From positions 1-56,887 of the forward strand of contig JBPCTQ010000118.1 in assembly GCA_051011595.1 (NCBI GenBank): 56,887 bases of DNA, in the 5' to 3' direction. Below are positions 9,310-48,895 of the stretch, in pieces. The first letter of the stretch is position 1; each line of letters begins with the position of its first letter. The position numbers and the translations under genes are program-made. Under the pieces are notes generated by a model that saw only the letters and a program-made list of their open reading frames with translations, was not told the origin of the DNA and made no database searches. This stretch comes from Acidimicrobiales bacterium. GTDB taxonomy: Bacteria; Actinomycetota; Acidimicrobiia; Acidimicrobiales; SHLQ01.

Positions 9310-9362
9310 TCTACCAATCCCACCCCCCGGACCACGGTCACCGGGCCGATAGGGTCGCCGCC

Positions 9363-10193
9363 ATGAGCGGCCCCATGGCGACAGTGTGGTTCGACGGCCA
9401 GCTCGTCGATCGCGAACTGGCCCATGTGGCCCCCACCGAACACGGTCTGACGGTGGGCGACGGCGTGTTCGAGACGCTCAAGGTCGTCGACGGCACCCCG
9501 TTCGCGCTGCGCCGTCACCTGCGGCGACTTCACCGCAGCGCCGACGGCATGGGCCTGGCGGCCCCCGAGACGCGGCTGTTGGCCAAAGCCGCCCGAGCCG
9601 TGTGCGAAGCCAATCCTGGCGCCACCAAACTCCGCATCATGGTCACCAGCGGCGATGGGCCGGCCGGCTCGGGGCGCGGCGACGGGCCATCCACCCTGGT
9701 GATCTTCGCCGACGACACGCCGCTGGCCACCGCACCGATCGTGCTGGCCACCGTGCCGTGGGCCCGCAACGAACGCAGCGCGGTGACCGGCATCAAGACC
9801 ACGTCCTACGCCGAGAATGTCCTGGCGCTGCAGTGGGCGCACCGCGAGGAGGCCGACGAGGCCGTGTTCGCCAACACCGTCGACCAACTCTGCGAGGGCA
9901 GCGGGACCAACATCTTCGTGGTGCTCGACGACCGGCTGATGACCCCGCCGCTCAGCTCGGGGTGCCTCGCCGGCATCACCCGAGAACTGCTGCTCGAGGT
10001 CACCGACGCGGTCGAGGCACCCATCCCGATGAGCGAACTGGACCGCTGCACCGAGATCTTCGTGACGTCGTCGACCCGCGACGTCGCAGCCGTTGCCTCG
10101 ATCGACGGAAGACAACTGCCGGCGCCCCCGGGACCCCACACCCGGGCCGCGACCGTCGCCTTCGCCACTCTGGCCGCCGATCTCGATCCCTAG
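9363..10193 (+). CDS. Class IV (fold type IV) aminotransferase, aminodeoxychorismate lyase-like
   Basis: 276 aa, HGLTVGDGVFETLKV...RHLRRLHRSA pattern. Its size fits ADC lyase or D-amino-acid aminotransferase rather than IlvE. Confidence 0.7.
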   Translation: MSGPMATVWFDGQLVDRELAHVAPTEHGLTVGDGVFETLKVVDGTPFALRRHLRRLHRSADGMGLAAPETRLLAKAARAVCEANPGATKLRIMVTSGDGPAGSGRGDGPSTLVIFADDTPLATAPIVLATVPWARNERSAVTGIKTTSYAENVLALQWAHREEADEAVFANTVDQLCEGSGTNIFVVLDDRLMTPPLSSGCLAGITRELLLEVTDAVEAPIPMSELDRCTEIFVTSSTRDVAAVASIDGRQLPAPPGPHTRAATVAFATLAADLDP

Positions 10194-12796: not shown

Positions 12797-12809
12797 TCGT
12801 CGACTACTC
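12791..12809. terminator. Palindrome between convergent accA and lpdA that embeds both stop codons (possible bidirectional terminator)
   Basis: gagtagtcg t cgactactc: 9-nt perfect inverted arms. TAG of accA (12794-12796) and CTA (the lpdA stop on minus, 12804-12806) lie in the arms. No clear U-tract. Confidence 0.35.
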
Positions 12810-14171
12810 GGCCGCCTCGGCCAACGCCTCGGCCAACGACGGGTGCACCAACAGCGAGTCGATCAGGTTGTTGACCGTGAGCGTGGCGTTCACGGCGATG
12901 GCCAACACCGATATCAACTCGGCCGCGTGCCGACCGACGATCGATCCCCCCAACACCACACCGGTGGCCGGGTCGGACACGATCTTGACGAACCCGCGGG
13001 CATCGTCGTTGATGAGCGCCTTGGCTGAGACCGAAAAGGGCACCTTGGTGACCCGGATTTTGCGGCCTTCGGCAAAGGCGTCGGCCTCGGCCAGGCCCAC
13101 GTCGGCGATCTCGGGTTCGGTGAAGATGGCCGAGGCGGCCTTGTCGTAGTCGAGGTGTTTGTGGGGCAGGTCGTGCATCCCCATGATGTGCTCGGCGATC
13201 TTGCGGCCCTGCATGGAGGCGACCGACGACAGGGGCAGTTTTCCCGAGAGATCACCACCGATGTAGATGTGCGGGACCGATGAACGGCAGTGATGGTCGA
13301 TGGGCACGTAGCCGCCCTCGTCGACGAACACCCCGGCGGCGTCGAGGCCCAGGTGTTCGGAGTTGGGGATCGAACCAATGGCCAACAGCGCATGTGACCC
13401 TTCGGCCACCCGTCCGTCGTTGCAGTTGACCCGTACCGCGTCGGGCAGCCGCTCGATACCCGTGGCTCGCGCCCCCTTGAACAGCGCCACTCCACGATCG
13501 AGGAAGTTCTCCTCCAGCGCGGCGGCCACCTCGGGGTCCTTGCCGGGCAGGACGTGCTGGCGACTGACGATGAGGGTGACGCGGGCACCGAAGCTGGCGA
13601 ACATGTGGACGAACTCCACGCCGGTGACTCCTGAGCCGACCACCACCAGGTGATCGGGCATCAGGGTGGGGGGATAGGCGTGGCGGGTGGTGAGCACCCG
13701 CTCGCCGTCGATTTCGGCCCAATCGGGTACACGGGGGCGACTCCCGGTGCCGAGCACGACGGCGTCGGCCTCGAGCTCGACGCGCTCACCGGTGGCCGCC
13801 TCGGCCACCACCTCGTGCGATCCCACCATCCGGCCCGAGCCCTCGATGATGCGGACTCCCTGGCTCTCGAGCAGGCTGATGGTGGAGGTGGTGAGCCGGG
13901 CCTCGATGGTGGCCAGTCGGTTCCGGAGATTGTCGAGATCGACCTCCGGTCGGACCTCTTCGAGTCCCATGCCGCGTGACCGGGCCAGGAACGACATGGC
14001 TCCACCGGTGGCGATCATCGCCTTGCTGGGTATGCAGTCCCAGAGATGGGCCGCCCCACCCACGATGTCGCGTTCGATCAGCACCACCTCGGCACCCAGT
14101 CGGGCCGCGTGGGTGGCCGCTGCGTTGCCCGCCGGGCCGGCACCGATGATGACCACGCGAGTCGCAACCAT
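12804..14171 (-). CDS. lpdA: Flavoprotein disulfide reductase family, LpdA (Rv3303c)-type NAD(P)H quinone reductase
   Basis: VVIIGAGPAGNAAA FAD motif. GGAAHLWDCIPSK has only one Cys of the usual CxxxxC, as in mycobacterial LpdA. Start trimmed to MVATRVV (14171); ATG 14183 is an alternative. Confidence 0.8.
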   Translation of the reverse strand: MVATRVVIIGAGPAGNAAATHAARLGAEVVLIERDIVGGAAHLWDCIPSKAMIATGGAMSFLARSRGMGLEEVRPEVDLDNLRNRLATIEARLTTSTISLLESQGVRIIEGSGRMVGSHEVVAEAATGERVELEADAVVLGTGSRPRVPDWAEIDGERVLTTRHAYPPTLMPDHLVVVGSGVTGVEFVHMFASFGARVTLIVSRQHVLPGKDPEVAAALEENFLDRGVALFKGARATGIERLPDAVRVNCNDGRVAEGSHALLAIGSIPNSEHLGLDAAGVFVDEGGYVPIDHHCRSSVPHIYIGGDLSGKLPLSSVASMQGRKIAEHIMGMHDLPHKHLDYDKAASAIFTEPEIADVGLAEADAFAEGRKIRVTKVPFSVSAKALINDDARGFVKIVSDPATGVVLGGSIVGRHAAELISVLAIAVNATLTVNNLIDSLLVHPSLAEALAEAAE

Positions 14172-14262
14172 GGGCGGCACCATACCGGGCCCGGCCTGAC
14201 CGACCCGGGAGGGCCGGCGGGGAGACGCTGGTCTTGGATCGGGATCCGCTAGCCTGACCGCC

Positions 14263-14493
14263 ATGATTGGTTACTTCGATGCCGGCACCGGCACCATGAT
14301 CATCTCGGCCGTGGCGGCGGGATTCGCCGGGATTGTCATGTTCGGGAAGTCGGTCTGGTACAAGCTGGCCTTCTGGCGCAAGCCCCAGGACAGCTCGATT
14401 GATCAGGCCGTCAACGTCGACCTCGACGATCTCGAAGGCACCGACGGACTCGACATCGGCGAGATCGACGACGCCGAGCTCGAGATCAACTGA
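14263..14493 (+). CDS. Small membrane protein with acidic C-terminus (unknown function)
   Basis: 76 aa, MIGYFDAGTGTMIISAVAAGFAGIVMFGKSVWYKLAFW then a D/E-rich tail. GC3-rich codons; the 3' end overlaps the convergent gene by 8 nt. Confidence 0.45.
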   Translation: MIGYFDAGTGTMIISAVAAGFAGIVMFGKSVWYKLAFWRKPQDSSIDQAVNVDLDDLEGTDGLDIGEIDDAELEIN

Positions 14494-15607
14494 TCGCTGC
14501 GGCCAACCAAGCGGCCGCGGCTTCGGCCGAATGACCGACGTTGTACACCGCGGCGTCACGCCGCTCGACCAGATCGGCCGCCCACTGGTCGGTTGATGAC
14601 GTCAGGTCGTCGATGGCGGGCACCAGCCGGTCGAGATCGGCCGGGTCGACCACGGCGCCGATCTCGGGCCGGAGTTGCCGCTCGATGGGTTCGATGTCGA
14701 GTTCGGACCACGCCGGGTTGTTGACCTTGGCCGGCGTGTCGATCGACACCACCGGCCGGGCCAGACCCAGGGCGTAGTCGAAGGCGGCACCCGACCAGTC
14801 AGAGATCAGCACACTCGACCGCAGCAGCGACGATCGATCCCGCATGTCGGTCTCGACGTGGAGGCGGCCGTGGCCGCCATGGGTGGCCGACAACTCGAAC
14901 GCCAGGTCGGGCAGGCGGCGCTGGGTCATGGGATGGAGACGCACCACCACCTCGTACTCGGCGGCCAGGAGCCGTTCGACGATGCGGGCGCCGACGTCGG
15001 TCTCCATGAACGCATCGTCGCCCCAACTGCCGGCGACCACGACCACCCCGGATTCGGGCCGAGATGCGGCCGACTCCTCGATGAGCGCATCCAATCGTCC
15101 GTAGCCGTGTTTGACCAACCGGCGGCGGTCGAGACCATGGAGTTGCTCAGCGGCCCGCAGTTCGCGCCCGTGGTGGGGCCCCACACACAACACGGTGTCG
15201 AAGGCGTCGAAGGCCCCCGGTCGGTACACCATGTGGGTGCTGACCACGGCGTGGAAGAGATATACGTAGTGCACCGGGTGCAGCGACCGTTTGACGGCGT
15301 AGGTGTCGAAATCGGGTGTGGTGGTCAACAACATGCCGGCCTGTAGGTCCCGCATCAGCACGTTGCGAACACTGCCCGATCCGATGTTGTAGGCCTGCAG
15401 ACGGGGGTGGTCACGGTCGAGCACCGGATCGTCGGCCTCGCCGGTCAGATACGACACGGCCACGTCGTGATGGTCGATCAGCCGCTCGACCACCGGGCCC
15501 AGGTGGGCGTAGTCGCTGCGCCCTTCGGCGAAGACCACCATTCGGCGCCAGTCGGAGTCGGATTTCTTGAACGCCTTGGCCGCGGACTTCTCGTCGCGCC
15601 GGCTCAC
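14486..15607 (-). CDS. CDP-glycerol glycerophosphotransferase-like (TagB/TagF family) enzyme
   Basis: GTG start inside a GTGA overlap (15604-15607). VVVAGSWGDD...VVVRLHPMT and VLISDWSGAAFDYALGLARPVVSI match the TagF-family C-terminal pattern (LITDYSS.xFD). Confidence 0.65.
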   Translation of the reverse strand: MSRRDEKSAAKAFKKSDSDWRRMVVFAEGRSDYAHLGPVVERLIDHHDVAVSYLTGEADDPVLDRDHPRLQAYNIGSGSVRNVLMRDLQAGMLLTTTPDFDTYAVKRSLHPVHYVYLFHAVVSTHMVYRPGAFDAFDTVLCVGPHHGRELRAAEQLHGLDRRRLVKHGYGRLDALIEESAASRPESGVVVVAGSWGDDAFMETDVGARIVERLLAAEYEVVVRLHPMTQRRLPDLAFELSATHGGHGRLHVETDMRDRSSLLRSSVLISDWSGAAFDYALGLARPVVSIDTPAKVNNPAWSELDIEPIERQLRPEIGAVVDPADLDRLVPAIDDLTSSTDQWAADLVERRDAAVYNVGHSAEAAAAWLAAAIS

Positions 15608-16068
15608 GTCACCTCGAGGCCCGCCAGGAGCTCGTTCACCACCGGAGTCAGCACCCGGCGGCGGCGATGGCTACCGATCACCACGTAGAGGCAGAACGCC
15701 CGGCCACCTTCGTGAAAGAAGATCTGGAGCCCGCCCTGGCCGGCCTGAGGCCGTTGCAGGGTGTGGGTGGCGAAGTCATCGGGCGGCACCGATCGGGGCA
15801 CACCCTCGCGAGCGAACAACGCCGTCCCGGCCGACTCACTGCCATAGTCGACCAGGCACACGAGCACTCCGCTCCGGCCCATGATCTCGACGGCACCGCT
15901 GCCGAAATCACCTCGCTCAGCCGGCAGTGCGAAGTTGGCCGCATGCAGCACCGGGTTCTCGACCCCGCCGGCCGATCGCTCCGTTTCATCGGGTTCCCGA
16001 CGATAGATGGCACCGTCCCACCCGGTGGGGAGGTCGACCGCCATGCCGTGACCACGTAGCACCGTCAC
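15604..16068 (-). CDS. Hypothetical cytoplasmic protein (about 150 aa)
   Basis: Start placed at the GTG overlapping the upstream TGA (GTGA 16065-16068); ATG 16044 is an alternative. I recognise no motif. The longer N-terminal extension in the ORF track overlaps the upstream gene. Confidence 0.5.
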   Translation of the reverse strand: MTVLRGHGMAVDLPTGWDGAIYRREPDETERSAGGVENPVLHAANFALPAERGDFGSGAVEIMGRSGVLVCLVDYGSESAGTALFAREGVPRSVPPDDFATHTLQRPQAGQGGLQIFFHEGGRAFCLYVVIGSHRRRRVLTPVVNELLAGLEVT

Positions 16069-16655
16069 CAGACGAACCCCATCGCCATACCGGCCGCCAG
16101 TGCTGCGGTGGCTCCGGCCAACAGCCGGGCCGGCGCGGCGGCCCGGGCCAGGTCGGTGTGCAGCCGCCGCAAGGACTCCGGGTCGTGCACCCGGGCCACG
16201 ACGCCGATGAGCGCCCCCCGGGTGAGCCCGAACAGACCACAGATGAGCAGCGCCGACCAGAAGCTGCCGCTGGCCAGCGCGATCACGGCGGTGAGATACA
16301 CGAGGGAGGTGGTGACGTAGGTGAACCATCCCGCCCCCAGCTGGAACCCGAAGCCCACGCCGTAGACCCACCCGCGGTAACGACCCAACCAGTCCTCATT
16401 GACCTGCCGGTGCCACGACGGCAGCGGTCGTCCTCGGCGAGTGAGCTCCGACGCGAAGGCAGCGATGGCGACCACCGCGACCACGAGCCAGCGCACGGCC
16501 GGGTCGATCCACACACCGACCGGCAGCGCCGCCGCACCGACCACGATGCCGGTGACGAGCGATCCGGCGAGGGCGCCGACCACGAAGGCGGCGGCGGTGG
16601 TGGACCATCGGTTGTTTCGGGTCCGCTCGCCGAGCGGATGGATGCTGGACAGCAT
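16065..16655 (-). CDS. Polytopic membrane protein of unknown function
   Basis: 196 aa with about 5 hydrophobic spans (AAAFVVGALAGSLVTGIVVGAAAL, WLVVAVVAIAAF, VYGVGFGFQLGAGWFTYV, FWSALLICGLFGL, LLAGATAALAAGMAMGF). Only one Cys, so not CcdA/DsbD-like. Confidence 0.6.
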   Translation of the reverse strand: MLSSIHPLGERTRNNRWSTTAAAFVVGALAGSLVTGIVVGAAALPVGVWIDPAVRWLVVAVVAIAAFASELTRRGRPLPSWHRQVNEDWLGRYRGWVYGVGFGFQLGAGWFTYVTTSLVYLTAVIALASGSFWSALLICGLFGLTRGALIGVVARVHDPESLRRLHTDLARAAAPARLLAGATAALAAGMAMGFVW

Positions 16656-16732: not shown

Positions 16733-17494
16733 TCATCGGTCACCCTCGGGATCTTCGTTCTCGGGCAGGTACAGGCGGGGGTCGCCGGGGGCGATACCGG
16801 CCCGGGCCAACTCGTCGTCGATGCGGGACTCACGCACCTCGCCGGTGGCCACCGAAGCAGGTGATCGCAGTCCGTCACCGGTGAGTCCGGCATCGGCCAT
16901 CGCCTGCCCCAACAGGTCGCGCACCTGGTCCCACGAGGCCGCCGCCCCCTCGCCGACGATTCGGCGATCGCGGCCGTCGACCAACAAGAAGAAGGGCGAG
17001 ACGGGGACGTCGTAGTCGTCCCAGGCGGTCGAGGACTGCACCACCGTGACCCCTGGTGGGGCCAGCTGGGCCAGCCGGGCCGGACTCTCGGCTTCGGGAC
17101 CCTGGGTGACAACCACGAGGCGGGTGTCGGCGCCGGGGAGAACTCGCTGGTCGGGGTCGGCGAACGCCTCCCAGAAGGTGGCGCAGGTGAGACACCCCGA
17201 CGACAAGAACGCCACCAGCGTGAGATGGTCGGTTCCGACGACCGCCACCTTCAACGAACCTCCATCGAGGGTCGATCCCACGATGTCGTGGCCGATGCGG
17301 TCACCGGCGGGCCGCGGCTCGGGAACACCCGGACGGGTGCGAATCGACATGCCGGCGGCGGTGGGATCGAGCACGTCGTCGAGGCCGAGCTCGTGCAGCG
17401 CTCGCAACACCTCGGCGTGAGCTCGCAACATCCCGACGACGAGCACGGCGAGCAGCGCCACCACCACCGTGAGGGCCACCACCAGCGCGGTCAC
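16733..17494 (-). CDS. Membrane-anchored thioredoxin-fold protein (TlpA/MauD-like, CxxC)
   Basis: Start trimmed to the GTG in the GTGA overlap at 17491-17494. N-terminal TM VTALVVALTVVVALLAVLVVGML, then LVAFLSSGCLTCATFWEAF redox motif. Acidic C-terminal tail. Confidence 0.7.
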   Translation of the reverse strand: MTALVVALTVVVALLAVLVVGMLRAHAEVLRALHELGLDDVLDPTAAGMSIRTRPGVPEPRPAGDRIGHDIVGSTLDGGSLKVAVVGTDHLTLVAFLSSGCLTCATFWEAFADPDQRVLPGADTRLVVVTQGPEAESPARLAQLAPPGVTVVQSSTAWDDYDVPVSPFFLLVDGRDRRIVGEGAAASWDQVRDLLGQAMADAGLTGDGLRSPASVATGEVRESRIDDELARAGIAPGDPRLYLPENEDPEGDR

Positions 17495-19656
17495 GACACC
17501 TCCACGGTGCGACAGCCGAGCAAGGTGTTGGGTTGTCCGCCGACCTTGTCCTTGCCGTACACACACACCTCGCGGGTTCCGGACCCGGCGGGCACAGTGA
17601 TCTTGAAGCCGTGCCGCGACGAGTACCCGGGATTGACGGCAGCCACCCGCCCCTTGTGACGGTCGGCTCGCCCGGCCCCGGCGAAGACCCCGTCGACGTA
17701 GACGTGCACACCGGCCGGCCCGTCGGTGTCGGGATCGATGACCCAACCCCGGACGGTGACCTGGCCACTTCCCGGTTCGACCTTCTGGAGCCGGCCGAAC
17801 GGCGAACCGGTGGGGGTGGTGAAGCGGCTCCGGTCGAGGAGCACGGTACGACCGGGGCTCTGGCGGTCGCGGGCATGGACGCGCAGCTCGTGGGTGCCCG
17901 CGTCGACCGGTACCACGAAGTCGAACCCGCCGCCGCTGCCGTACCCGGGCACATCGGGACGGTCGCCGTCGGCCCGCACCCCACCCCAGAACACATCGTC
18001 GAGGTAGACGTGGAGGTTGACCGCTTTGGGTGTGTCCGGATCGGCCACCCAGCCCCGAACCCGGACCTCATCGGGGCCCACGGTGAGCGACTCGACCGCC
18101 CCCAATGGGGACCCGGTGGGCACCGAGACATCGGCGCAGTCGATGGTGGTACGACGACCGGACCCGCCATTGCGGGCCCGCAGGCAGACCTGGTGGGAGC
18201 CGGTGACACCCTCCACCACGATGTCGAAACCGTGATCAGGGCCGGCCTCGGGGAAGGCCTGGGCCACATCGGGTCGGGGCAGGTTGGCCCGCCGCGACAG
18301 CGCCACCTCGCCGTCGATCAACACGTCGACCATCGAGGCCTGTTCGATATCGGGGTCGATGACCCAACCGCGAAGGTACACACCACCCGCGACAGCTTCG
18401 ATACGGGCCGCCCCGAACGGAGACCCGTCCGGGACCACGACGTCGGCGCATCCGATGAGCGTGCGCTGACCTACACCTCGGTTGACGGCGTAGACACAGA
18501 CGCGGCGAGCGCCAGGGCCGGCTTCGACCGAGGCGGCGAACCCGTGGTCGGGGCCGAAGGCGCCGTAGTCGGTCAGGTCGGGACGAGCAAGATCGGCCCG
18601 AGCGAAGGCGACGAATTCGTCGTCGACATGGATCTCGACCCGGACGAAGTTGTCGGTGTTGGGGTCGATGGCCCAACCGACCACGTCGATGGTGCCGAAC
18701 GGGCTGGTGGTGGCCATCTCCAACTCGCCGAAGGGGTTGCCCCCGGGCACCGTCAGCCGTCGACAACCAATGGTGCGCAGCGACAATCCCTCCACCACGT
18801 TGGCGCACACGGTGTGGGTGCCAGGGCCGAGCGGAACCGACACGTCGAACCAGCGGACTCCCCCGTTCACGGCGTCGAATCCGGGCGGCGGCTCGGTGAG
18901 GGTGGCTTCGGTGTAACCGATCCCTTCAGCCCCCACCGTGATGGCGATGTTGGTCGGCGCTTGAGGGACGACATAACCCACGACCCGAACGCCGTCGGGG
19001 GCCAACTGCACGTCGACCACGTTGCCCTCGGGATTACCCGGGTCGATCTGCAGGCACGGTCGGTTGTGGAACCGCGTGTTGTTGTCGGTGCGTACCGCCG
19101 TGGTGCAGGTCGGATCGAGCAGCCAGGGCGGCGTACAGGTGACCACCCGGCACACGATGGGCCCCAGGCAGGCAATGCCCTGGTTGCACTGGCCATAACG
19201 GAACCCGGTGCACCCGGCCTTGCGGTTCCCGCAGCTGCCGGCCGCACAGCCACATCGAGTGCCCGAGCATGAACCCGAGCAGATCCCGCCCGAGCCACAG
19301 CCACAGGAGCCGCAGGAGGCGTTGCAGTCGAGGTAGTAGCGGGGTTGGGGTGAGCCGTTGTCGCAGTAACCGGACCCGTCGGCCTTCCACCACCCGCCGT
19401 AGCTGGTACCCGGCGGACAGCCGTTCACGCCGGTGGTGGTGCAGCAGAATTCGGTGTAGCCGTCACAGCAGGTGGCTCCGCAATCGCAACTCTGCCCCGA
19501 GCAGTTGCAGATGGCGGCGTAGGCAGTGGTGGGACGAAGTACGTAGGCAGCCGGGGCCACGGTCATGGCCGATCCGGCCAGCGCCCCTCGCCGCAGGAAA
19601 CCGCGGCGATCGGTGCGTCGTTCGAGGAAACGGGCGGCGCGATCGACAATGGTCAT
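17491..19656 (-). CDS. Tat-exported protein: cysteine-packed MauA-like N-terminal domain plus five tandem about 100-aa beta-type repeats
   Basis: 721 aa. Twin-arginine signal TDRRGFLRRGALAGSAMTVAPAAY. 26 Cys between aa 50 and 201, including GCPPGTSYGGWWKADGSGYC...RYYLDC. Repeats follow with the pattern GSPFG..V.VRGWVIDPD...RPDV...GPDHGF...H.VC...GC..V.VP. Confidence 0.8.
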   Translation of the reverse strand: MTIVDRAARFLERRTDRRGFLRRGALAGSAMTVAPAAYVLRPTTAYAAICNCSGQSCDCGATCCDGYTEFCCTTTGVNGCPPGTSYGGWWKADGSGYCDNGSPQPRYYLDCNASCGSCGCGSGGICSGSCSGTRCGCAAGSCGNRKAGCTGFRYGQCNQGIACLGPIVCRVVTCTPPWLLDPTCTTAVRTDNNTRFHNRPCLQIDPGNPEGNVVDVQLAPDGVRVVGYVVPQAPTNIAITVGAEGIGYTEATLTEPPPGFDAVNGGVRWFDVSVPLGPGTHTVCANVVEGLSLRTIGCRRLTVPGGNPFGELEMATTSPFGTIDVVGWAIDPNTDNFVRVEIHVDDEFVAFARADLARPDLTDYGAFGPDHGFAASVEAGPGARRVCVYAVNRGVGQRTLIGCADVVVPDGSPFGAARIEAVAGGVYLRGWVIDPDIEQASMVDVLIDGEVALSRRANLPRPDVAQAFPEAGPDHGFDIVVEGVTGSHQVCLRARNGGSGRRTTIDCADVSVPTGSPLGAVESLTVGPDEVRVRGWVADPDTPKAVNLHVYLDDVFWGGVRADGDRPDVPGYGSGGGFDFVVPVDAGTHELRVHARDRQSPGRTVLLDRSRFTTPTGSPFGRLQKVEPGSGQVTVRGWVIDPDTDGPAGVHVYVDGVFAGAGRADRHKGRVAAVNPGYSSRHGFKITVPAGSGTREVCVYGKDKVGGQPNTLLGCRTVEVS
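17494..18741 (-). repeat. Four tandem about 100-codon repeat modules inside CDS 17491-19656 (a fifth, degenerate copy extends to about 19050)
   Basis: Each module starts G(S/N)P(F/L)G and contains RGW.(I/A)DPD, RPD(V/L), (GPD)HGF. All but the third also carry a Cys pair (VC...GC). Confidence 0.8.
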
Positions 19657-20189
19657 GAGGATCCTCCGGCGGCGGAACGGGACGGGCCGACGTACACCAT
19701 GGCCTCGGGCAGCACCGTCAGTACCGCATAGGACAAGGCGGCGCCGAGGGTGACCACACCCGCGAACGGGAGGCCGTACCAGGGCTGGTCGGCCACGATC
19801 TGGTCGACGGAATCGATGGGGAAGAAGACGGCGGCCAGGCCCACCCCCGCCGCGGCCGCATTAAAAGTGATGTGGATGGCACCGGGGCTGGTGCCCGACG
19901 ATCCGAAACAGCCGCAGTTGGTGAGCCGGCCCGATCGGCGACCGACGGCCACGAACACCGCGAACCCGGCATATGTGAGGCCGAGCGCGGCGGCCGGGAG
20001 GGCGCCACCCCACACGAGCACCGAGGTTGCGATGGCCACTTCGGCCAGGGCGAAGGCGACGACGACCAGCGTCGACGACGGGAGGCCGACGGCATACAAC
20101 GCGGCGCGGGTGGCGGTGGGGCTCCACAACTTGGCCAGGCCGGCTGCAGCCAGCAGCAGGGCGCACATGATGATCGGACCGGCGAGCAC
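19653..20189 (-). CDS. MauE/DoxX-family-like redox-associated membrane protein
   Basis: 178 aa with 4-5 TM spans and the RLTNCGCFGSSG motif (CGC motif of MauE). GTG start (ATG 20168 alternative). Its stop overlaps the next start in ATGA at 19653-19656. Confidence 0.7.
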   Translation of the reverse strand: MLAGPIIMCALLLAAAGLAKLWSPTATRAALYAVGLPSSTLVVVAFALAEVAIATSVLVWGGALPAAALGLTYAGFAVFVAVGRRSGRLTNCGCFGSSGTSPGAIHITFNAAAAGVGLAAVFFPIDSVDQIVADQPWYGLPFAGVVTLGAALSYAVLTVLPEAMVYVGPSRSAAGGSS

Positions 20190-20280: not shown

Positions 20281-21639
20281 GTGACCCAGCCCGACCGGTC
20301 GACCGGACCTGTTCGTTCGGTTGTGGTCGCCACCCCCGAACCCCTCGCTCACCGCCGTGCGGGGCCTGCGGTCAGAGCCATTCGAACCGCCGAGACCCTG
20401 GCCGCTGAAGGCCATCGAGTCACGCTGGCGTCCACGGCCGCGGCTGGGCCCGACATCGAGGTCGACGGCTGCACGGTCGTGGACCGCCTCGCCGTCCCCA
20501 CCGACGCCGAGGTGTACGTGGTCACCGGTCGGGCCATGCTCGATCTCGCCTGGCTGGACGACTCGACGGCGGCGGTCGGGGTCGATCTCTACGACCCGTT
20601 CCAGCTGGAGGCCCTCCATCGGGGTGGCGACGACGAGATCCGGCGCATCGATCTGGTGGAGGGCGCCCATCGAACCCTGGCCGCCCAGTTCACCCGAGGC
20701 GATCGGTTCTTCTGTGCCAACGAACCGCAGCGTTCCTTGTGGTTGGGGTACCTCGGGGCGTTCGGGCGCCTCAACCCGGCCACCCACGACGCCGACCCGT
20801 CGGCGGCGGGACTGATCGAGTTGGCACCCTTCGGCGTCGACGGCGACGAACCGACCACCGGCCCGTCGCCGCTCCGCGCGCACCCGGGCATCGGCCCCGA
20901 TGACCCCATCGTGGTCTGGGCCGGCGGCCTGCACGACTGGCTCGATCCGGAGACGCTGGTTCGGGCCGCCGAGGTGGCCGCCCGGCGGCGCTCCGACCTG
21001 CGGGTGGTCTTCGTGGCCGGCCCTCCTCCCGCGGGCGACCCCACCGGTGCGCCCGAGCGGGCCCGGCGAGAGGCCGACCGTCTGGGCCTCACCGACCGGG
21101 TGGTGTTCTTCCATCCCGACTGGATTCCCCACGACCAGCGAGGTCCCATGTTGGTCGACGCGGCCATCGGGGTGTGTACCCATCGGCCCCACCTCGAGAC
21201 CCGGTTCTCTCATCGCACTCGTTTCCTCGACCACCTGTGGGCGGGGTTACCGACGGTGAGTACCGGCGGTGATCCGCTGTCGGCTCAGCTGGAGGCCGCC
21301 GGGGCGGCACTGATCGTCGAGCCGGGAGATCCCGACGGTGTGGCCGATGCCCTGGTCGACCTGCTCGACCACGACGACCGCCGCACCGGTATGGGCGACG
21401 CGGCCCGCGCCCTGGGCACCACCCTCCACTGGCCCGACACGCTCGCACCCATCGTGGACTGGGTGGCCTCGGCCGCCACCGCCCCCGACCGTCTCGACCC
21501 GGCCCTGGCGCACCGCCTGGGGCCCCAGGCCCACACATCACGCTCGGCGGTGTCACGACTGCGATTGCAGTGGCAGCGTGAAGGTGCGGCCGGAGTGCTC
21601 GACCGGGCCAGCCGCCGCGTGCGCCGTCCATCGTCGTGA
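20281..21639 (+). CDS. GT-B glycosyltransferase (GT4/GT1-like)
   Basis: 452 aa. IVVWAGGLHDWLDPETLVRA, then RVVFF..WIPHDQRGPMLVDAAIGVCTHRPHLETRFSHRTRFLDHLWAGLPTV, a GT-B C-terminal-domain pattern. Confidence 0.65.
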   Translation: MTQPDRSTGPVRSVVVATPEPLAHRRAGPAVRAIRTAETLAAEGHRVTLASTAAAGPDIEVDGCTVVDRLAVPTDAEVYVVTGRAMLDLAWLDDSTAAVGVDLYDPFQLEALHRGGDDEIRRIDLVEGAHRTLAAQFTRGDRFFCANEPQRSLWLGYLGAFGRLNPATHDADPSAAGLIELAPFGVDGDEPTTGPSPLRAHPGIGPDDPIVVWAGGLHDWLDPETLVRAAEVAARRRSDLRVVFVAGPPPAGDPTGAPERARREADRLGLTDRVVFFHPDWIPHDQRGPMLVDAAIGVCTHRPHLETRFSHRTRFLDHLWAGLPTVSTGGDPLSAQLEAAGAALIVEPGDPDGVADALVDLLDHDDRRTGMGDAARALGTTLHWPDTLAPIVDWVASAATAPDRLDPALAHRLGPQAHTSRSAVSRLRLQWQREGAAGVLDRASRRVRRPSS

Positions 21640-22922
21640 ACGACCACCCGCCGGTCAGAGCAGTGGTCGTGAACCACAACGGCGGTGAGCTGTTGAACCG
21701 CTGCCTGCAATCGCTGCAGGCCCTCGAGTGGCCGAACGACCGAATTCACATCGTGGTGGCCGACAATGCCAGCACCGACAACAGCCTCGACTCCGTCCCC
21801 ACCGGCGTGGAGATCATCGAGATGGGCACCAACGCCGGATTCGGGGCGGCCATCAACCGGGCGGTGTCGGCGCCGGGCCCGGCGTTCGATGCCGTGTTGT
21901 TGCTCAATCCCGACGCGTGGATCGAACCCGACGCACTGGAGAAGCTGCGTCACGTGCTCGATACCGATCCCGGCGTCGGCGCGGCCTGTCCTCGCATCCT
22001 GTTCGATCGTCCCATGGCCACCGTCACCATCACGGCCGACGAGGGTATGGACTGCCGGCTCGGCGCCGCCGAGGTCGACGGAACCGACGTCCGCGACTCG
22101 GTGCACGGGCTGGAAGGGGCCGAGCGAACGCCGAACCGGTTCGGGACATCGACCTGGAAGCTGAGCGCCCGCAGCACCCTGCACGTCCCCCATGGCTCGC
22201 GTCTGCGGGTCGAACTCGAGGCCCGACGCCGGGGCCGGGTCACGATCGCCGCCGACGCCGATCCGGTCACGGCGCTGGTCGGCCCGGGCGCAACGTCGAT
22301 CGATGTGGCCCTCGGCGATGAACCACTCACCGTCGTCCAGAACGACGGATCCTCGGTGGCCGCCGACGGCACCGGCACCAATCGGCACTTCCATCGACCC
22401 CTCTCGGCCGTCGACTCCCGACCGGCCGACGTGTTCGCCTGGTGTGGCGCCGGCGTGCTGCTCCGATCGGCGATGCTCGACCAGATCGGCTCGTTCGCCG
22501 AACCCTTCTTCCTCTACTACGAGGACACCGACCTGGCTTGGCGGGGCCAGGCCGCGGCGTGGCGCAGCACCCTGGTGCCCGACGCGGTGGTGCATCATCG
22601 GCACTCGGCCACCACCGGCCAGGGTCGGGCCGTCACCGAGGTCCACCAACACCGAAACCGGGTGCTGATGATGGCCCGGAACGCACCCCTGGGTGCGGCC
22701 TTGGGCACGCTGATCGGGCTGGTGCTGACCGCCGGGTCCACCACGGTGCGGGGATGTGCGGCGCGACTGCGCGGCTCGGGCGACCTCACCCGGGCCGGGT
22801 ACCGCTGGCGCTCGGTTGTGGCCGCGCTGGCCAAGCTGCCGTGGGCGCTGTCCACCCGCCGCAGGCTCGGGCGGCGAGCTCGTCGGCCCCGACGCCAGGT
22901 CTACGCCGAGCTGGAGCCGTGA
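21636..22922 (+). CDS. GT2-family glycosyltransferase (rhamnosyltransferase-like) with a large internal insertion
   Basis: GTG in a GTGA overlap with the upstream stop. VVVNHNGGELLNRCLQSL, VVADNASTDNS, LLLNPDAW, FAWCGAGVLLR, FFLYYEDTDLAWR. Confidence 0.8.
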   Translation: MNDHPPVRAVVVNHNGGELLNRCLQSLQALEWPNDRIHIVVADNASTDNSLDSVPTGVEIIEMGTNAGFGAAINRAVSAPGPAFDAVLLLNPDAWIEPDALEKLRHVLDTDPGVGAACPRILFDRPMATVTITADEGMDCRLGAAEVDGTDVRDSVHGLEGAERTPNRFGTSTWKLSARSTLHVPHGSRLRVELEARRRGRVTIAADADPVTALVGPGATSIDVALGDEPLTVVQNDGSSVAADGTGTNRHFHRPLSAVDSRPADVFAWCGAGVLLRSAMLDQIGSFAEPFFLYYEDTDLAWRGQAAAWRSTLVPDAVVHHRHSATTGQGRAVTEVHQHRNRVLMMARNAPLGAALGTLIGLVLTAGSTTVRGCAARLRGSGDLTRAGYRWRSVVAALAKLPWALSTRRRLGRRARRPRRQVYAELEP

Positions 22923-22971
22923 CCGCCGAGGAGCAACGGCCTGGCGCACCTCAGCCTCTACAGTCGAACCC

Positions 22972-24003
22972 GTGCAGATCGTCTATCTGACGGCTCGACC
23001 GTCGGTCCTGGCCCAGACGCTCGACCACGTCGGGCACTACATGCCGTTCATCGACCAGGTCGTGGCGGTGTGCCCGGCGGCCGCGGCCGACGCGGTGGCC
23101 ACCATCTCCGGCATCGAGGTCATCACCGACGAACACCTCACCGGGCAGTCGGCGGCCACCATCGCGGCCTGGGACCACACCACGCGGAACTTCCGACTAC
23201 GGGCCGCCATGGCCGACCACCCGGTGATCGCCGAAGAATTCGTGATGGCCGACGACGACAACCGGCCACTCCAGGCCATCGACCGGTCGTTCTTCACCGA
23301 CAACCGAGGCCGCACCCGCAACTACTGGTTCACCGAGCTCGATGCGTGGAAACGCGACGAGACCCCGTTCGATCAGGGCCTGACCCATGCCCTGCTGGTC
23401 CTACGCCAACTCGGCGTCGACCGACCCCTGGCCTACGCCTCCCATCAACCCCAGCTCATCGACCGGGCGCTCTTCGGTGAGGCCGTCGGGCGGGTGATGG
23501 CCACCGCCTCCCGATACCCCCTCGACGAGTGGTCGATCTACTTCAACCTGGCCCGAGCGGGCGCCCCGGAACGATTCGCTCCCCCGGAGCCGTTCGTCAC
23601 GCTGGGCTGGCCCCAGTTCCCAGGTGAATGGCTCCACATGGTGCCGCCCGCCGGGTACCTGTTCGAGAACCATCATCCCGAGCTGTACCAACCGGGCGGC
23701 CTGTTCGAGGGGCTCCCCACCGACCTGGTTCCCGAGACCGCCGATGCCGACAACCTCGAGAAGGCCGTTCGCTGGCATCGATTCGGGCTGGCCCTCGGAC
23801 GCCTCGACATCGACGATGCGGTGACCAATCCGTACACCCAGGGCAAACCCCATCGAAGAGCCTTCATGCGCGGCACCCGTTCGTTGCGCAAGGTCGTCGA
23901 ATACGCCACCATCGCCGAACGCGAGGCCCTCACCGACCTGACCGGCCGCGTCCGTCGGCTCGAACAGCGACTGGACGAGCTGGCCGTCGATGACGACGAC
24001 TGA
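22972..24003 (+). CDS. Hypothetical protein in the glycosyltransferase operon (DDD motif, C-terminal coiled-coil-like tail)
   Basis: Start trimmed to GTG 22972 (VQIVYLTARPS), because the upstream part of the ORF overlaps the GT2 gene. Contains EEFVMADDDNRPL and ASHQPQLIDRALF. Ends TDLTGRVRRLEQRLDELAVDDDD. Confidence 0.5.
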   Translation: MQIVYLTARPSVLAQTLDHVGHYMPFIDQVVAVCPAAAADAVATISGIEVITDEHLTGQSAATIAAWDHTTRNFRLRAAMADHPVIAEEFVMADDDNRPLQAIDRSFFTDNRGRTRNYWFTELDAWKRDETPFDQGLTHALLVLRQLGVDRPLAYASHQPQLIDRALFGEAVGRVMATASRYPLDEWSIYFNLARAGAPERFAPPEPFVTLGWPQFPGEWLHMVPPAGYLFENHHPELYQPGGLFEGLPTDLVPETADADNLEKAVRWHRFGLALGRLDIDDAVTNPYTQGKPHRRAFMRGTRSLRKVVEYATIAEREALTDLTGRVRRLEQRLDELAVDDDD

Positions 24004-25543
24004 GCCGGCGCCGGACCACGTCGAGTCCGAAGAACCCGAGGGCGGCCCGCCACTCCCCCGCGCCGCCCGTATCGCCATCGCGCTGGCGGTGGCCGCCGGC
24101 ATCGTGGTCCGGTTCGTGGCCGACACGCCCTTGTGGCTCGACGAGGCATTGTCGGTGAACATTGCCGACCTCCCGGCCGGCGACATCGACGACGCCCTGC
24201 GCCGTGACGGCCATCCGCCGCTGTACTACTTCTTGTTGAAAGCCCACATGGCGGTGTTCGGGCAATCCGATCTGGCGGTGCGGGCGTTGTCGGGTCTGAT
24301 AGCGGTGGCCACCCTGCCGCTGGCGTTCGTGGCCGGACGCCGGCTGGGGGGCGTTCGGACGGCGTGGCTCAGCCTTGCGCTGTTCGCCGCCTCACCCTTC
24401 GCCATCCGGTACGCCACCGAGACCCGGATGTACACGTTGCTCATGTTGTTGGCCCTGGTTTTGTGGCTGCTGGTCGACCGGGCCCGCACCGCGCCAACCG
24501 CGGGCCGGCTGGTGGCCATTGCGGTGGTGGCCAGCGCATTGTGTTGGACGCACTACTGGGCGTTCTGGTTGTTGGCGGCCTTCGGGTTGTGGGCCTTGGT
24601 GGCGGCGGTACGCGGGCTTCCCGACTTCCCCATTCGGTCCGGTCGTCTTGTCGCAGGTGCGCTGGTGGTGGGTGGTGTGTTGTTCCTCCCCTGGGTGCCG
24701 GCGTTGCTCGATCAGCTCGCCCACACCGGTACCCCCTGGGGTGATCCCAGTCGGCCGGCCGAGGTGGCGGTGCTCACCCTGTTCGAGCTGGGTGGTGGCC
24801 CGCGGTCTGAAGCCCAGTTGGTGGGCATGGCCATCACCACCCTGGCCGTGCTCGGTGTCCTCGCTCGGCCGGGTGACGACAAACGCATCGAGCTGGATCT
24901 ACGTGTGCCGCTCCCGGCCCGGGAATTGGCCGGCCTGGTGGTGGTGACCATGGCCCTGGGTTTGCTGGTCAACGTGGTCACCGGCAGCACCTTCCAGCCT
25001 CGGTACGCCGCGGTGGTGGTGCCTTTCGTGATGTTGCTGGCCGCTCGGGGGCTGGGGGCGTTTCGGGGCCCCGCCCTCGGCATCGTCGCCAGTCTGGTGG
25101 TGGTGGCCGGGTTGGCCGCCGGCGTGGGGGTGAGTGGCCTGGAACGAAGCCAGGGTGAGGTGGTGGCCGCAGTCATCAACGCGGACCACGGTGACGGCGA
25201 CGTGGTGGTGTTCTGCCCCGACCAGCTGGGCCCCTCCACCGACCGCTACCTCGACGACGTGGTCAACGGAGTCACGTTCCCGGACGGGGCGTCACCGACG
25301 CTGGTCGACTGGCGCGACTACGCCGATCGGGTCGATGCGGCCGACCCGGTCTCGTTCATCACCGAGGTCGACGCCGCCCACGACGGCACCATCTGGCTGG
25401 TCATGGCCACGTCCTACCGGACACTGGAGGGGGTGTGCGAAGAGATGAACGCCACCCTGTTCGCCTCCCACTCCGGCGAGTTGGTGGTGCGACCCAACAC
25501 CGACTTCTACGAGCCGGCGGCCTTGTACCGATTCGACCCATGA
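23990..25543 (+). CDS. GT-C fold membrane glycosyltransferase (GT39/ArnT-PMT-like)
   Basis: 517 aa, many TM spans. N-terminal loop LWLDEALSVNIA...RRDGHPPLYYFLLKAHMAVFG (DE motif plus PPLYY) is typical of family 39/83 enzymes. Soluble C-terminal domain. Confidence 0.65.
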   Translation: MTTTEPAPDHVESEEPEGGPPLPRAARIAIALAVAAGIVVRFVADTPLWLDEALSVNIADLPAGDIDDALRRDGHPPLYYFLLKAHMAVFGQSDLAVRALSGLIAVATLPLAFVAGRRLGGVRTAWLSLALFAASPFAIRYATETRMYTLLMLLALVLWLLVDRARTAPTAGRLVAIAVVASALCWTHYWAFWLLAAFGLWALVAAVRGLPDFPIRSGRLVAGALVVGGVLFLPWVPALLDQLAHTGTPWGDPSRPAEVAVLTLFELGGGPRSEAQLVGMAITTLAVLGVLARPGDDKRIELDLRVPLPARELAGLVVVTMALGLLVNVVTGSTFQPRYAAVVVPFVMLLAARGLGAFRGPALGIVASLVVVAGLAAGVGVSGLERSQGEVVAAVINADHGDGDVVVFCPDQLGPSTDRYLDDVVNGVTFPDGASPTLVDWRDYADRVDAADPVSFITEVDAAHDGTIWLVMATSYRTLEGVCEEMNATLFASHSGELVVRPNTDFYEPAALYRFDP

Positions 25544-26616
25544 GCGGGTGGCGGCGCGATCTGCGCATCGCCTTGCCCGCCTGGATCACCACCCGGGTGT
25601 TGGTGGCCATCACGTTCGTGGTGGCCCATGCCGTGGGAGCCGACGACGACAAGGGTCAGCTCACCCTCGACCAGGGCCTGCTGGCCTGGGACGGCGACTG
25701 GTACCACCAGATCGCCGAACACGGTTATGGCGGAGCCCCGGACGGCGCCATTCGGTACTTTCCGGGGTACCCGCTCTTGGGGCGAGTTCTGGGATGGCCG
25801 CTCACGGGTCGCAGCGACATCGCGCTGGTGTTGGTGGCCAACCTGGCCGCGCTGGCCGCCACCGTCGTGTTGGTCCGTCTGGCCCGCCGCGAATTCGACG
25901 GGACCGTCGCTCGCCGCACGGCGTGGTGGTTCTCGCTGTTCCCCGCGTCGTTCGTACTCACCTGGGCGTACAGCGAGTCCGTCTTCGTGCTCGCGGCGGC
26001 CGTCGCCATGCTCGCCACTCGCTCCCGGCGCTGGCCGGTGGCCGCCGGCGCCGGCCTCCTCGCCGCTCTGGTTCGACCTACCGGCGTGTTGCTGAGCGGT
26101 TTCATCGCGGTCGACGGGTGGACCCGTCGACGGCGATCCGACCGCTTCGGCTGGGTGGCGGCCACCGTCGCCCCGATCGTGGGGCTGTGCTGCTTCTTCG
26201 TGTGGGCGCAATGGGCCGAGGACTCGTGGCGCGCCCCGCTCGATGCCCAGCGCGAGATTCGAGGCGGATTCCACGAACCGGTGACAAGGGTGCTGCGGGG
26301 TCTGGGGCGGGGCCTCGGCGGCGATCAGACCGAGCTGTTGCACGCCGTGGCCGCCATTGTGTTCGTCACGGTGATCGTGGTGGTGTTCCGGTCGCGGCCG
26401 GCCTACCTGGTGTACGGGCTCGGCGGGGTGGCCGTCGGCCTGGCCGCATCCACCATCAACAGCTTCGAACGCTACGGACTGGGACTGATCCCCGTGATCC
26501 TGGGCCTGGGCGCCCTGCCACTGTCGGAACGAGCCCACCGAATCGGCCTGGCCGGGTCGAGCCTGGCCATGATCGGCTTGGGCACCCTCGCCCTCACCGG
26601 CCAATACGTGCCGTAA
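25540..26616 (+). CDS. GT-C-like integral membrane mannosyltransferase-type protein (PIG-V-like)
   Basis: Start trimmed to the ATG in the ATGA overlap at 25540-25543. First loop has LAWDGDWYHQIAEHGY, which I associate with PIG-V-type transferases. About 9 TM spans. Confidence 0.55.
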   Translation: MSGWRRDLRIALPAWITTRVLVAITFVVAHAVGADDDKGQLTLDQGLLAWDGDWYHQIAEHGYGGAPDGAIRYFPGYPLLGRVLGWPLTGRSDIALVLVANLAALAATVVLVRLARREFDGTVARRTAWWFSLFPASFVLTWAYSESVFVLAAAVAMLATRSRRWPVAAGAGLLAALVRPTGVLLSGFIAVDGWTRRRRSDRFGWVAATVAPIVGLCCFFVWAQWAEDSWRAPLDAQREIRGGFHEPVTRVLRGLGRGLGGDQTELLHAVAAIVFVTVIVVVFRSRPAYLVYGLGGVAVGLAASTINSFERYGLGLIPVILGLGALPLSERAHRIGLAGSSLAMIGLGTLALTGQYVP

Positions 26617-26626
26617 CCTTCGGACA

Positions 26627-29790: not shown

Positions 29791-29791
29791 A

Positions 29792-35982: not shown

Positions 35983-36074
35983 TTGACGAGGGGCGCACAC
36001 AGGTGATCGCGTGCCAACCACTGGATCGGCGCGGGCTTCCGCCGATGAGGATCACCGTGACTCCTGCCCTTGCG

Positions 36075-48745: not shown

Positions 48746-48895
48746 ATCAGGCTTGGCGTCGCCCGACCGGCTCGGTACTCTGAAAGGACCTGGCCTCTGC
48801 TCAGACGAGCGGCGACCGATCACCCCCGAACCCCCAGCGCACGACTGCATGATCGTCCGGGCGGTTCCTTCCGTTGATCCTCGAGAGGAACACTG

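Follow-up and report, generated by a model that had tools for sequence, protein, structure and literature searches.

A cysteine-rich domain of Acidimicrobiia, encoded behind a Tat leader with homologues of MauE, MauD and MauF: probably a wall-tethered disulfide knot with remote ties to MauA

Why would a bacterium pack 26 cysteines into about 150 residues behind a signal for twin-arginine translocation (Tat), and which proteins would take care of so many thiols? This question is raised by a gene on contig JBPCTQ010000118.1 of an Acidimicrobiales bacterium (assembly GCA_051011595.1), of which we analysed positions 1 to 56,887, the whole stretch being called the window here. A preliminary description, made from the letters alone, had offered a disulfide-knotted scaffold, a metal-thiolate cluster or a protein-derived quinone cofactor as possible answers, and had pointed to a resemblance to MauA, the methylamine dehydrogenase (MADH) small subunit, which carries tryptophan tryptophylquinone (TTQ). 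The account that we favour, and that we consider probable though far from certain, is that the cysteine-rich (Cys-rich) domain is a disulfide knot tethered to the cell wall, matured by homologues of MauE, MauD and MauF and probably related to MauA from afar.

The gene itself presents few difficulties. Translation of 19054-19509 gives exactly residues 50-201 of the coding sequence 17491-19656(-), and a recount agrees with the 26 cysteines that had been claimed for this part. They make up 17% of its 152 residues, as compared to 8 cysteines (1.5%) in the 520 residues of the rest of the 721-residue protein, so that the cysteine density of residues 50-201 is far above chance. The quoted runs were likewise found, CNCSGQSCDCGATCCDGYTEFCC at residue 50, GCPPGTSYGGWWKADGSGYC at residue 79 and CGSCGCGSGGICSGSCSGTRCGCAAGSCG at residue 115, as were RYYLDC at residue 106 and the Tat motif DRRGFLRRG at residue 16. 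The open reading frame (ORF) is a real gene: its GC content at third codon positions is 0.82, it has hundreds of homologues, and its ATG, preceded by a GGAGGA Shine-Dalgarno sequence, overlaps the stop codon of the upstream gene (ATGA). The features discussed below are collected in Table 1.

Table 1. Features of the Cys-rich gene and its cassette in the window
Feature	Position	Strand	Basis
721-aa protein with Tat signal, Cys-rich domain and repeats	17491..19656	-	translation; ATG overlap with MauE stop
Cys-rich domain, residues 50-201, 26 Cys	19054..19509	-	count, conservation, AlphaFold2, Cys parity
Tat leader, residues 1-48	19513..19656	-	conservation; hhalign of leader profile against TTQ leaders
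Ig-like repeats (five, each about 100 aa), residues 206-721	17494..19041	-	repeat alignment; weak Big_7 match
MauE-like membrane protein, 178 aa, 5 predicted transmembrane segments, NCGCFG motif	19653..20189	-	Pfam PF07291
MauD-like thioredoxin-fold protein, 253 aa from GTG at 17494	16733..17494	-	profile against MauD
MauF-like membrane protein (Mem196), 196 aa, no conserved Cys	16065..16655	-	BLASTP and profile against MauF
Small150, conserved 154-aa protein, no signal peptide	15604..16068	-	GTGA start/stop overlap; neighbour conservation

With residues 1-207 as a query, at least 234 homologues of 54-83% identity were found, the named ones almost all from Acidimicrobiales or Acidimicrobiia. 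A scan of one genome per species turned up at least 551 stretches encoding the Cys-rich family, mostly from Acidimicrobiia, and an exhaustive profile search gave 478 clusters at 50% identity, one of which comes from Nakamurella alba of the class Actinomycetes. Conservation of 95% or more over 341 distinct sequences is reached by 34 columns, of which 16 are cysteines; the others are G66, F70, G76, N78, P81, G88, W89, W90, R106, Y107, D110, F152-R153-Y154-G155, G165, R170 and T194. AlphaFold2, run with the family alignment, folds the domain with a mean predicted local distance difference test score (pLDDT) of 91.4 and a predicted template modelling score (pTM) of 0.85, around a predicted core of three strands (residues 84-92, 106-114 and 164-173) that form one sheet. 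The unstructured or low-complexity outcome against which the preliminary description had asked for a check was thus not seen, and the domain is, as far as the model goes, a real, folded and conserved module. Searches of Pfam, NCBIfam and the PDB with sequence and profile of the domain gave no match even at E <= 10, Foldseek of the model found none at E <= 0.001, neither in the PDB, where the best E was 4.6, nor in BFVD, and no description of the family turned up in literature searches. The family is without prior annotation and is class-wide in Acidimicrobiia. A precomputed PF26607 label attached to P0039, P0044, P0047 and other homologues of about 280 residues, where it would name the C-terminal module, was not reproduced by a local Pfam-A scan, which gave nothing at E <= 10.

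Five genes run from 20189 to 15604 on one strand, with ATGA or GTGA start/stop overlaps or short gaps between them, and encode the MauE-like protein, the Cys-rich protein, the MauD-like thioredoxin-fold protein, the MauF-like Mem196 and Small150. Of 80 species-representative loci, about 70 have this cassette next to the Cys-rich gene, and it is kept with rearranged gene order in Nakamurella alba as well as in a locus of the CW_binding_2 (CWB2) type.

The gene upstream of the Cys-rich gene matches the Pfam family PF07291 MauE with E = 1.6e-13 and 51.5 bits (cut-off 27). Conversely, its family profile scores 46 bits on MauE of Paracoccus denitrificans and finds nothing else in the mau cluster. 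The motif CGC[FL][GA] is present in 73/73 MauE-like homologues, in 67 of them as CGCFG. It has recently been reported that two MauE proteins replace DsbB in an Escherichia coli dsbB deletion strain, that a CXC motif, followed by conserved F-G, is needed for this, and that MauE is far commoner than MauA, which is found in 10% of MauE-bearing species (bioRxiv 10.64898/2026.03.05.709764). The protein encoded here shares with these general MauE proteins the CGC-F-G motif, the conserved Lys in transmembrane segment 1 and Glu in transmembrane segment 2, and it too occurs without MauA or MADH and is paired with a thioredoxin-fold protein. By analogy, we infer that it is a DsbB-like, quinone-linked disulfide-forming oxidase. 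Unlike the general form, however, it is not a free-standing housekeeping enzyme, being translationally coupled to one Cys-rich client as well as to homologues of MauD and MauF, and its client carries a Tat signal rather than one for the Sec pathway.

In the MauD-like protein, whose start codon overlaps the stop of the gene before it (GTGA), a hydrophobic segment near the N-terminus is combined with an invariant SGCxxC and a cis-Pro motif; among 76 homologues, no CxxC pattern other than [ST]GCxxC is listed. Its profile brings CxxC and cis-Pro into register with the active sites of PDB oxidoreductases of the thioredoxin fold, with weak E-values. The family profile gives 31.2 bits on MauD of P. 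denitrificans over 118 columns that include both motifs, as compared to a maximum of 2.8 over 1000 shuffles. No NCBIfam model (including one for MauD, if the library holds it) was matched at E <= 1, and the protein is therefore called MauD-like rather than an orthologue. For Mem196, on which, as on Small150, Pfam gave nothing, the identification comes only from the comparison with MauF of P. denitrificans, to which it is 35% identical over 117 residues in BLASTP (E = 1.2e-8). The family profile reaches 61.3 bits on MauF residues 99-237 (shuffle maximum 15.6), a match that covers the C-terminal two-thirds of MauF only. Among eleven canonical mau cluster proteins, each cassette profile matches its own counterpart and no other. 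We regard it as very likely that the whole cassette is homologous to mauE, mauD and mauF plus their substrate, and at this level of the system the earlier idea of a MauA-like special case held up, with homologues of all three proteins as neighbours and a leader that resembles those of TTQ small subunits.

Small150 lies beside the cassette in 69 of the 80 loci and has 3108 homologues, all of them unnamed. In Foldseek, its AlphaFold2 model (pLDDT 92.8) shows a weak likeness to the PsbP/Tsi3 fold, with a best E of 5e-3 and TM of 0.35-0.43. The gene at 12807-14270(-), which lies downstream of the cassette at a distance of two genes, encodes a pyridine-nucleotide disulfide oxidoreductase with Pyr_redox_2 and the dimerisation domain. 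Some genomes also carry stand-alone copies of the Cys-rich gene, as in locus L002 (8001-8855, protein P0100), which has no cassette and contains DprE1/DprE2-like, UbiA and sugar-nucleotide genes; one cassette may thus serve several clients.

The cysteines themselves vary in a way that is expected of pairs. Counted within the domain, they come to an even number in 118 of 121 members and, when distinct full-length members are taken, in 247 of 253, over a range of 18-30 in which 22, 24, 26 and 28 are the common values. Columns 115 and 130 are gained and lost together (r = 0.86-0.95), columns 118 and 163 covary with r of about 0.7 and columns 133 and 148 with r = 0.6-0.7, and the quartet C52/C57/C59/C64 is missing as a whole in the short-form members, which keep all other cysteines. 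Even counts and paired gain and loss argue for disulfides rather than for a metal cluster, and on this basis the 26 cysteines would form about 13 disulfides, the putative map following from parity and covariation. Together with the co-encoded MauE and CxxC partner, this favours the disulfide-knotted scaffold among the three original alternatives.

How far the relationship to MauA extends beyond the helpers can be asked separately for the leader and for the mature domain. In the leader, VDRAARFLERR is the n-region helix and TDRRGFL the twin-arginine motif, followed by an h-region and the cleavage site A-Y-A-A (cut before the last A). In 121 homologues, R17, R18 and F20 are 92-98% conserved (RR 98%, F20 92%), and A-Y-A-A, directly before C50, is invariant; several homologues are called 'twin-arginine translocation signal domain-containing protein' by NCBI, which is the sole name among the named ones. 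Against the leaders of TTQ small subunits, the leader profile gives an hhalign Prob of 95.9%, and it scores 22-38 on 15 TTQ leaders of the MADH or aromatic amine dehydrogenase (AADH) type as compared to 12-21.5 on 16 generic Tat leaders, the latter being E. coli leaders and an imperfect control. The leader is closer to TTQ small-subunit leaders than to generic Tat leaders. TTQ leaders (L165 4830-5000, L167-L174) have an n-region helix F-D-x-x-x-E-x-L-S-R-x-x-A before RR and PLLPVDR after the h-region. Analogously, leaders of the Cys-rich family (as at 19513-19656 of the window) have L-x-D-R-A-A-x-x-L-x-R-R before RR and AP-x-x-[FY]-V-L-[RK]-P after the h-region. The shared helpers might dock at these conserved motifs.

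For the full precursors we used a diverse alignment of TTQ small subunits that contained MADH sequences, plasmid AADH-like genes and three paralogues of Thermomicrobium roseum, the MauA reference having been checked against PDB entry 1mg2_B. The two precursor profiles match with an hhalign Prob of 97.1% (E = 6.8e-11, 143 columns), and the mature part alone with a Prob of 11% (E = 0.0027), a score that was reached by 1 of 300 column shuffles (P = 0.0033, z = 3.9); the mature part of the short-form subfamily gives 12.8%. The cysteine spacing of the N-terminal half agrees, since short-form members read C-x5-C-x7-CC-x8-CPPG[ST]-x5-WW and MauA reads C-x5-C-x6-C-x-C-x7-CPPGT-x6-W. As to the one cysteine pair open to a test, C163 aligns to C109 of MauA, and its covarying partner C118 comes a little behind the D-C motif, which is compatible with the disulfide C78-C109 of MauA. 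Judged by sequence, the N-terminal half of the domain is probably homologous, if remotely, to the small subunit of the TTQ enzymes. Of the likeness proposed earlier (CPPGT, then Trp, Cys and D-C), what stood is this weak profile signal, with Prob 11-13%, E of about 0.002 and P = 0.003, while Pfam PF02975, HMMER and Foldseek returned nothing in its favour. One further likeness was rejected: ICDCSGGS/ICNCSGQS had looked like C36/C38 of MauA, but C52/C57/C59/C64 are lost as a unit, so that they represent an inserted local two-disulfide element and the CDC match is topologically wrong.

A comparison with MauA and AauA (PF02975) shows both what is shared and what sets the family apart. In both groups the leader is of the Tat type and its n-region is extended, the secreted domain is small, extremely Cys-rich and carries CPPGT followed by a conserved Trp, a Cys and Y-x-D-C, and MauE, MauD and MauF homologues are encoded in one operon. 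The Cys-rich family, however, has 22-28 cysteines in about 155 residues, as compared to 12 in about 125 residues of MauA, its C-terminal half is expanded and different and has no Trp at the position of Trp108, it is fused to cell-wall-binding modules, and it occurs in Acidimicrobiia and Actinomycetes rather than in methylotrophic Proteobacteria. Three divergent MauA-like paralogues lie in one locus of the megaplasmid of T. roseum DSM 5159 (L166 5878-6318, 9737-10198 and 10216-10950; only one of them is in the gene table of the record; WP_143714793.1). They resemble the Cys-rich family in being orphan small Cys-rich proteins with RR leaders and 'AWW' or 'AWY' at the TTQ Trp, and mauB, mauG, mauE, mauD and mauF are all absent within 6 kb of them. 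They differ from it in matching the MauA profile (E = 1e-7 to 1e-10), in keeping Trp108-Cys109 and in having no MauE, MauD or MauF neighbours. As a bridge between the two families they failed, because the HMM (hidden Markov model) of the Cys-rich family gives no match to them.

Does the domain then carry the cofactor as well? TTQ is a quinone of cross-linked beta-Trp57 and beta-Trp108 that is made by the di-haem enzyme MauG, enzymes with cysteine tryptophylquinone (CTQ) need a flavoprotein or radical S-adenosylmethionine (SAM) maturase, and all known routes to TTQ or CTQ need one such enzyme (PMC11951088). The preliminary description had asked whether both TTQ tryptophans are kept. A candidate for the first of them is W90, which is present in 341/341 sequences and was set against Trp57 each time that hhalign gave an alignment, all of these alignments being of low confidence. 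The second is not kept: position 162, which aligns to Trp108, is A, P, G, S or R and never W, and W178, the only other candidate, is 77% conserved and otherwise replaced by V, Y or A. D65, aligned to Asp32 of MauA, is conserved to 79%. MauA, MauB, MauG, MauJ, MauM, MauN and amicyanin of P. denitrificans have no phmmer match at E <= 1e-3, neither in the 57 kb of the window nor in 82 loci of the family. The haem motif CxxCH occurs in no likely gene of the window, with one lone CxxCH in an ORF of 105 residues, and the genes near the cassette offer no amicyanin, cytochrome or similar acceptor of electrons. With no second TTQ Trp, no MauB and no MauG, the domain would lack TTQ, and a TTQ-like cofactor, as put forward earlier, is not supported.

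A further question is on which side of the membrane oxidation would take place. In 68 MauE-like proteins, Lys plus Arg average 3.5 in loops 1 and 3, loop 3 being the one with CGC, as compared to 0.76 in the N-terminus and loops 2 and 4; the bias is found in 65 of the 68, and the C-terminus is positive too. In the MauD-like protein, basic residues come after rather than before the hydrophobic segment. Applied to these charge counts, the positive-inside rule would place the CGC loop of MauE and the MauD-like domain in the cytoplasm, which would change the site of oxidation such that the knot could fold before Tat export. The canonical MauE of P. denitrificans (L165 3623-4183) has the same Arg/Lys-rich CGC loop as the family; the cytoplasmic active site that the rule would give is at odds with the published complementation of DsbB. 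A protein of 624 residues from Acidimicrobiia metagenome-assembled genomes (P0133; a cluster of 7) joins MauE with its 5 transmembrane segments through about 70 linker residues to a Cys-rich domain that is preceded by an internal Tat-like motif (SRRAFLGR) and followed by FG-GAP-like repeats. This fusion constrains the relative topology of MauE and client, and it is compatible with two models.

Several of these observations weigh against the account that we favour, and they do so first of all on the point of ancestry. The 97% precursor match is driven mostly by the Tat leader, whose likeness could come from both leaders being high-GC Tat signals. The domain does not match PF02975 in Pfam at E <= 10, phmmer and hmmsearch against the PDB gave none, and with filters off the comparison of HMM and sequence is at chance for MauA of P. 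denitrificans (P = 0.47) and borderline for the mean over the MauA family (P = 0.057). The confident AlphaFold2 model has no MADH or AADH light chain among its Foldseek matches (best E 4.6), and BLASTP and hhalign against MauA alone or a narrow MauA profile recover the CPPGT segment only (Prob 2%, shuffle P = 0.015). Homology of the mature domain to MauA is therefore not established, and the disulfides, too, are deduced rather than seen. One could thus picture a Cys-rich secreted protein of other descent that recruited the MauE/MauD/MauF folding module, with the likenesses to MauA due to convergence or chance; the wide occurrence of MauE, far beyond that of MauA, and the topologically wrong CDC match would agree with this. 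We nevertheless consider such an unrelated client unlikely, if not strongly so, since it is all three MauA-specific helpers and not MauE alone that are kept with the domain, since the diversified TTQ profile lifts the mature domain well above shuffles, and since leader and N-terminal cysteine spacing both lean towards MauA. Another idea, that of a Trp-derived quinone or cross-link made without MauG from W89/W90, D110 and Y107/Y108 in a wall-bound oxidoreductase, can cite the invariance of W89, W90 and D110 (340 or 341 of 341), the alignment of W90 with Trp57, the many invariant polar and aromatic residues that suggest a functional site, and the 'WW' at this place in the divergent Thermomicrobium paralogues. 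It seems very improbable to us. Apart from the absent Trp108 counterpart and the variable W178, W89 and W90 are adjacent in a predicted beta-strand and would thus point to opposite faces, the cassette holds no MauG, flavoprotein or radical-SAM maturase, no CxxCH protein is found among the likely genes, an amicyanin or cytochrome acceptor is missing nearby, and even cysteine parity speaks against a single Cys-Trp thioether.

The remaining alternatives take their cue from the Tat signal, which is typical of proteins that are loaded with a cofactor before export. CxC, CC and CxxC runs could bind Cu(I), Zn or Fe-S in the cytoplasm, from where a metal-thiolate or metal-storage domain would be exported folded; the spacing in residues 111-149 is metallothionein-like, and in one genome the cassette has a CopC gene and a P-type ATPase in its vicinity. 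Yet it is this most metallothionein-like stretch that is least conserved and most variable in length and cysteine content, with indels and optional cysteines that come and go in pairs, which is the opposite of what is expected for a ligand set. Parity is near-universally even, a ferredoxin-type CxxCxxCxxxCP motif is absent from the sequence, metal genes are not kept as neighbours across loci, and what is encoded alongside is a disulfide-forming oxidase and a thioredoxin-fold protein. The copper storage protein Csp1, which likewise combines a Tat signal with many cysteines, is a four-helix bundle in which an odd number of cysteines (13) bind metal and no disulfides occur, whereas the fold predicted here is beta-rich and irregular, with even parity and a co-encoded oxidase. 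The metal cluster of the preliminary description thus falls away almost entirely, and we give it hardly any credence. The same components might also work from the other side, with the CGC loop of MauE and the MauD-like domain facing the cytoplasm and the knot being oxidised at the inner face of the membrane and exported folded. This would explain why a domain with 13 disulfides uses Tat, and it could provide a task for the 154-residue protein without a signal peptide, which perhaps holds the knot; the charge bias of the MauE-like proteins and the basic residues behind the MauD-like hydrophobic segment point the same way and count against oxidation on the outside. However, two MauE proteins complement the E. 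coli dsbB deletion in a manner that needs a periplasmic CXC, and TOPCONS agrees with this placement (bioRxiv 10.64898/2026.03.05.709764). As P. denitrificans MauE shows the same charge pattern, the pattern may reflect a peculiarity of the family and not the topology, and we consider a cytoplasmic site of oxidation to be improbable.

Where the mature protein would end up is suggested by what follows the Cys-rich domain. In the protein of the window these are the Ig-like repeats, four of which carry one cysteine pair each. The C-terminal module varies by lineage: LGFP repeats are found in Nakamurella and others, a single Ig-like repeat in the Actinospongicola homologue, and CW_binding_2, SLH or a ricin lectin in further ones. 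These modules bind the wall or act as spacers, so that the Cys-rich head would be displayed on the cell wall. The cassette also sits inside a wall-glycopolymer locus (7798-9477(-), 14486-15607(-), 20281-25540(+), 26573-30958(+) and 32509-36051(-)), with genes for an LCP (LytR_cpsA_psr) ligase, a TagF-like glycerophosphotransferase, glycosyltransferases of families GT4 and GT2, a PMT_2 membrane glycosyltransferase, a double-GT2 protein, an ABC (ATP-binding cassette) exporter pair and a GT2+GT4 fusion of 1181 residues; another copy of the cassette lies in a similar locus. Farther away, at 48878-52387(+), the window contains a full-length cobalamin-dependent methionine synthase MetH with all five domains, which is unrelated to the Cys-rich gene.

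The disulfide knot that we favour would then be the N-terminal head, of about 155 residues and with 26 cysteines in 13 disulfides, of a secreted protein tethered to the wall. Its maturation would be carried out by the machinery of its own operon, for which homology is shown and the mechanism inferred: MauE, as a membrane oxidase with a CGC active site, would pass electrons to quinone as DsbB does, and the MauD homologue, a membrane-associated CxxC protein of the thioredoxin fold, would act as a direct thiol oxidase or isomerase. In methylotrophs the same set of helpers serves MauA with its 12 cysteines and Tat export, and the signs of ancestry shared with MauA would be the leader architecture, the N-terminal cysteine spacing, CPPGT and the Trp at the position of Trp57. 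While the lineage-specific C-terminal modules would hold the head on the wall, the head itself would most likely be a rigid surface module, resistant to proteases and redox changes, that serves in binding or as structure. A patch of invariant residues (W89, W90, K91, D93, R106, Y107, D110, F-R-Y-G 152-155 and R170) may form the functional surface for a ligand or partner. This assignment of a function is the weakest step of the scheme and counts against it.

For the study of oxidative folding, the proposal that MauE is a general DsbB-like oxidase is very recent, and here MauE would have a natural, genetically linked client with 13 disulfides. Since homologues of MauD and MauF are present outside of methylamine metabolism, the division of labour between MauE, MauD and MauF becomes directly testable. 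The old puzzle of why Cys-rich disulfide proteins use Tat is sharpened by this family. In this context, a far-reaching variant would see in it a wall-anchored, non-methylotroph branch of the TTQ lineage that still uses its invariant Trp pair for chemistry, with a Trp-derived redox cofactor or cross-link formed in the absence of MauG, or, linked to this, oxidation of the knot by MauE, MauD and MauF at the cytoplasmic face followed by folded Tat export. We think this quite unlikely, but if true, either would revise the picture of MauA-type maturation.

For the Acidimicrobiia, which are abundant in soil, marine and wastewater communities and poorly cultured, the family represents a class-wide surface component that had gone unannotated, and its Cys-rich domain has a confidently predicted fold without a structural neighbour in the PDB. 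Finally, the probable relationship to MauA suggests a much wider family of surface domains knotted by disulfides, from which the small subunit of MADH and its helpers descended or to which they gave rise.

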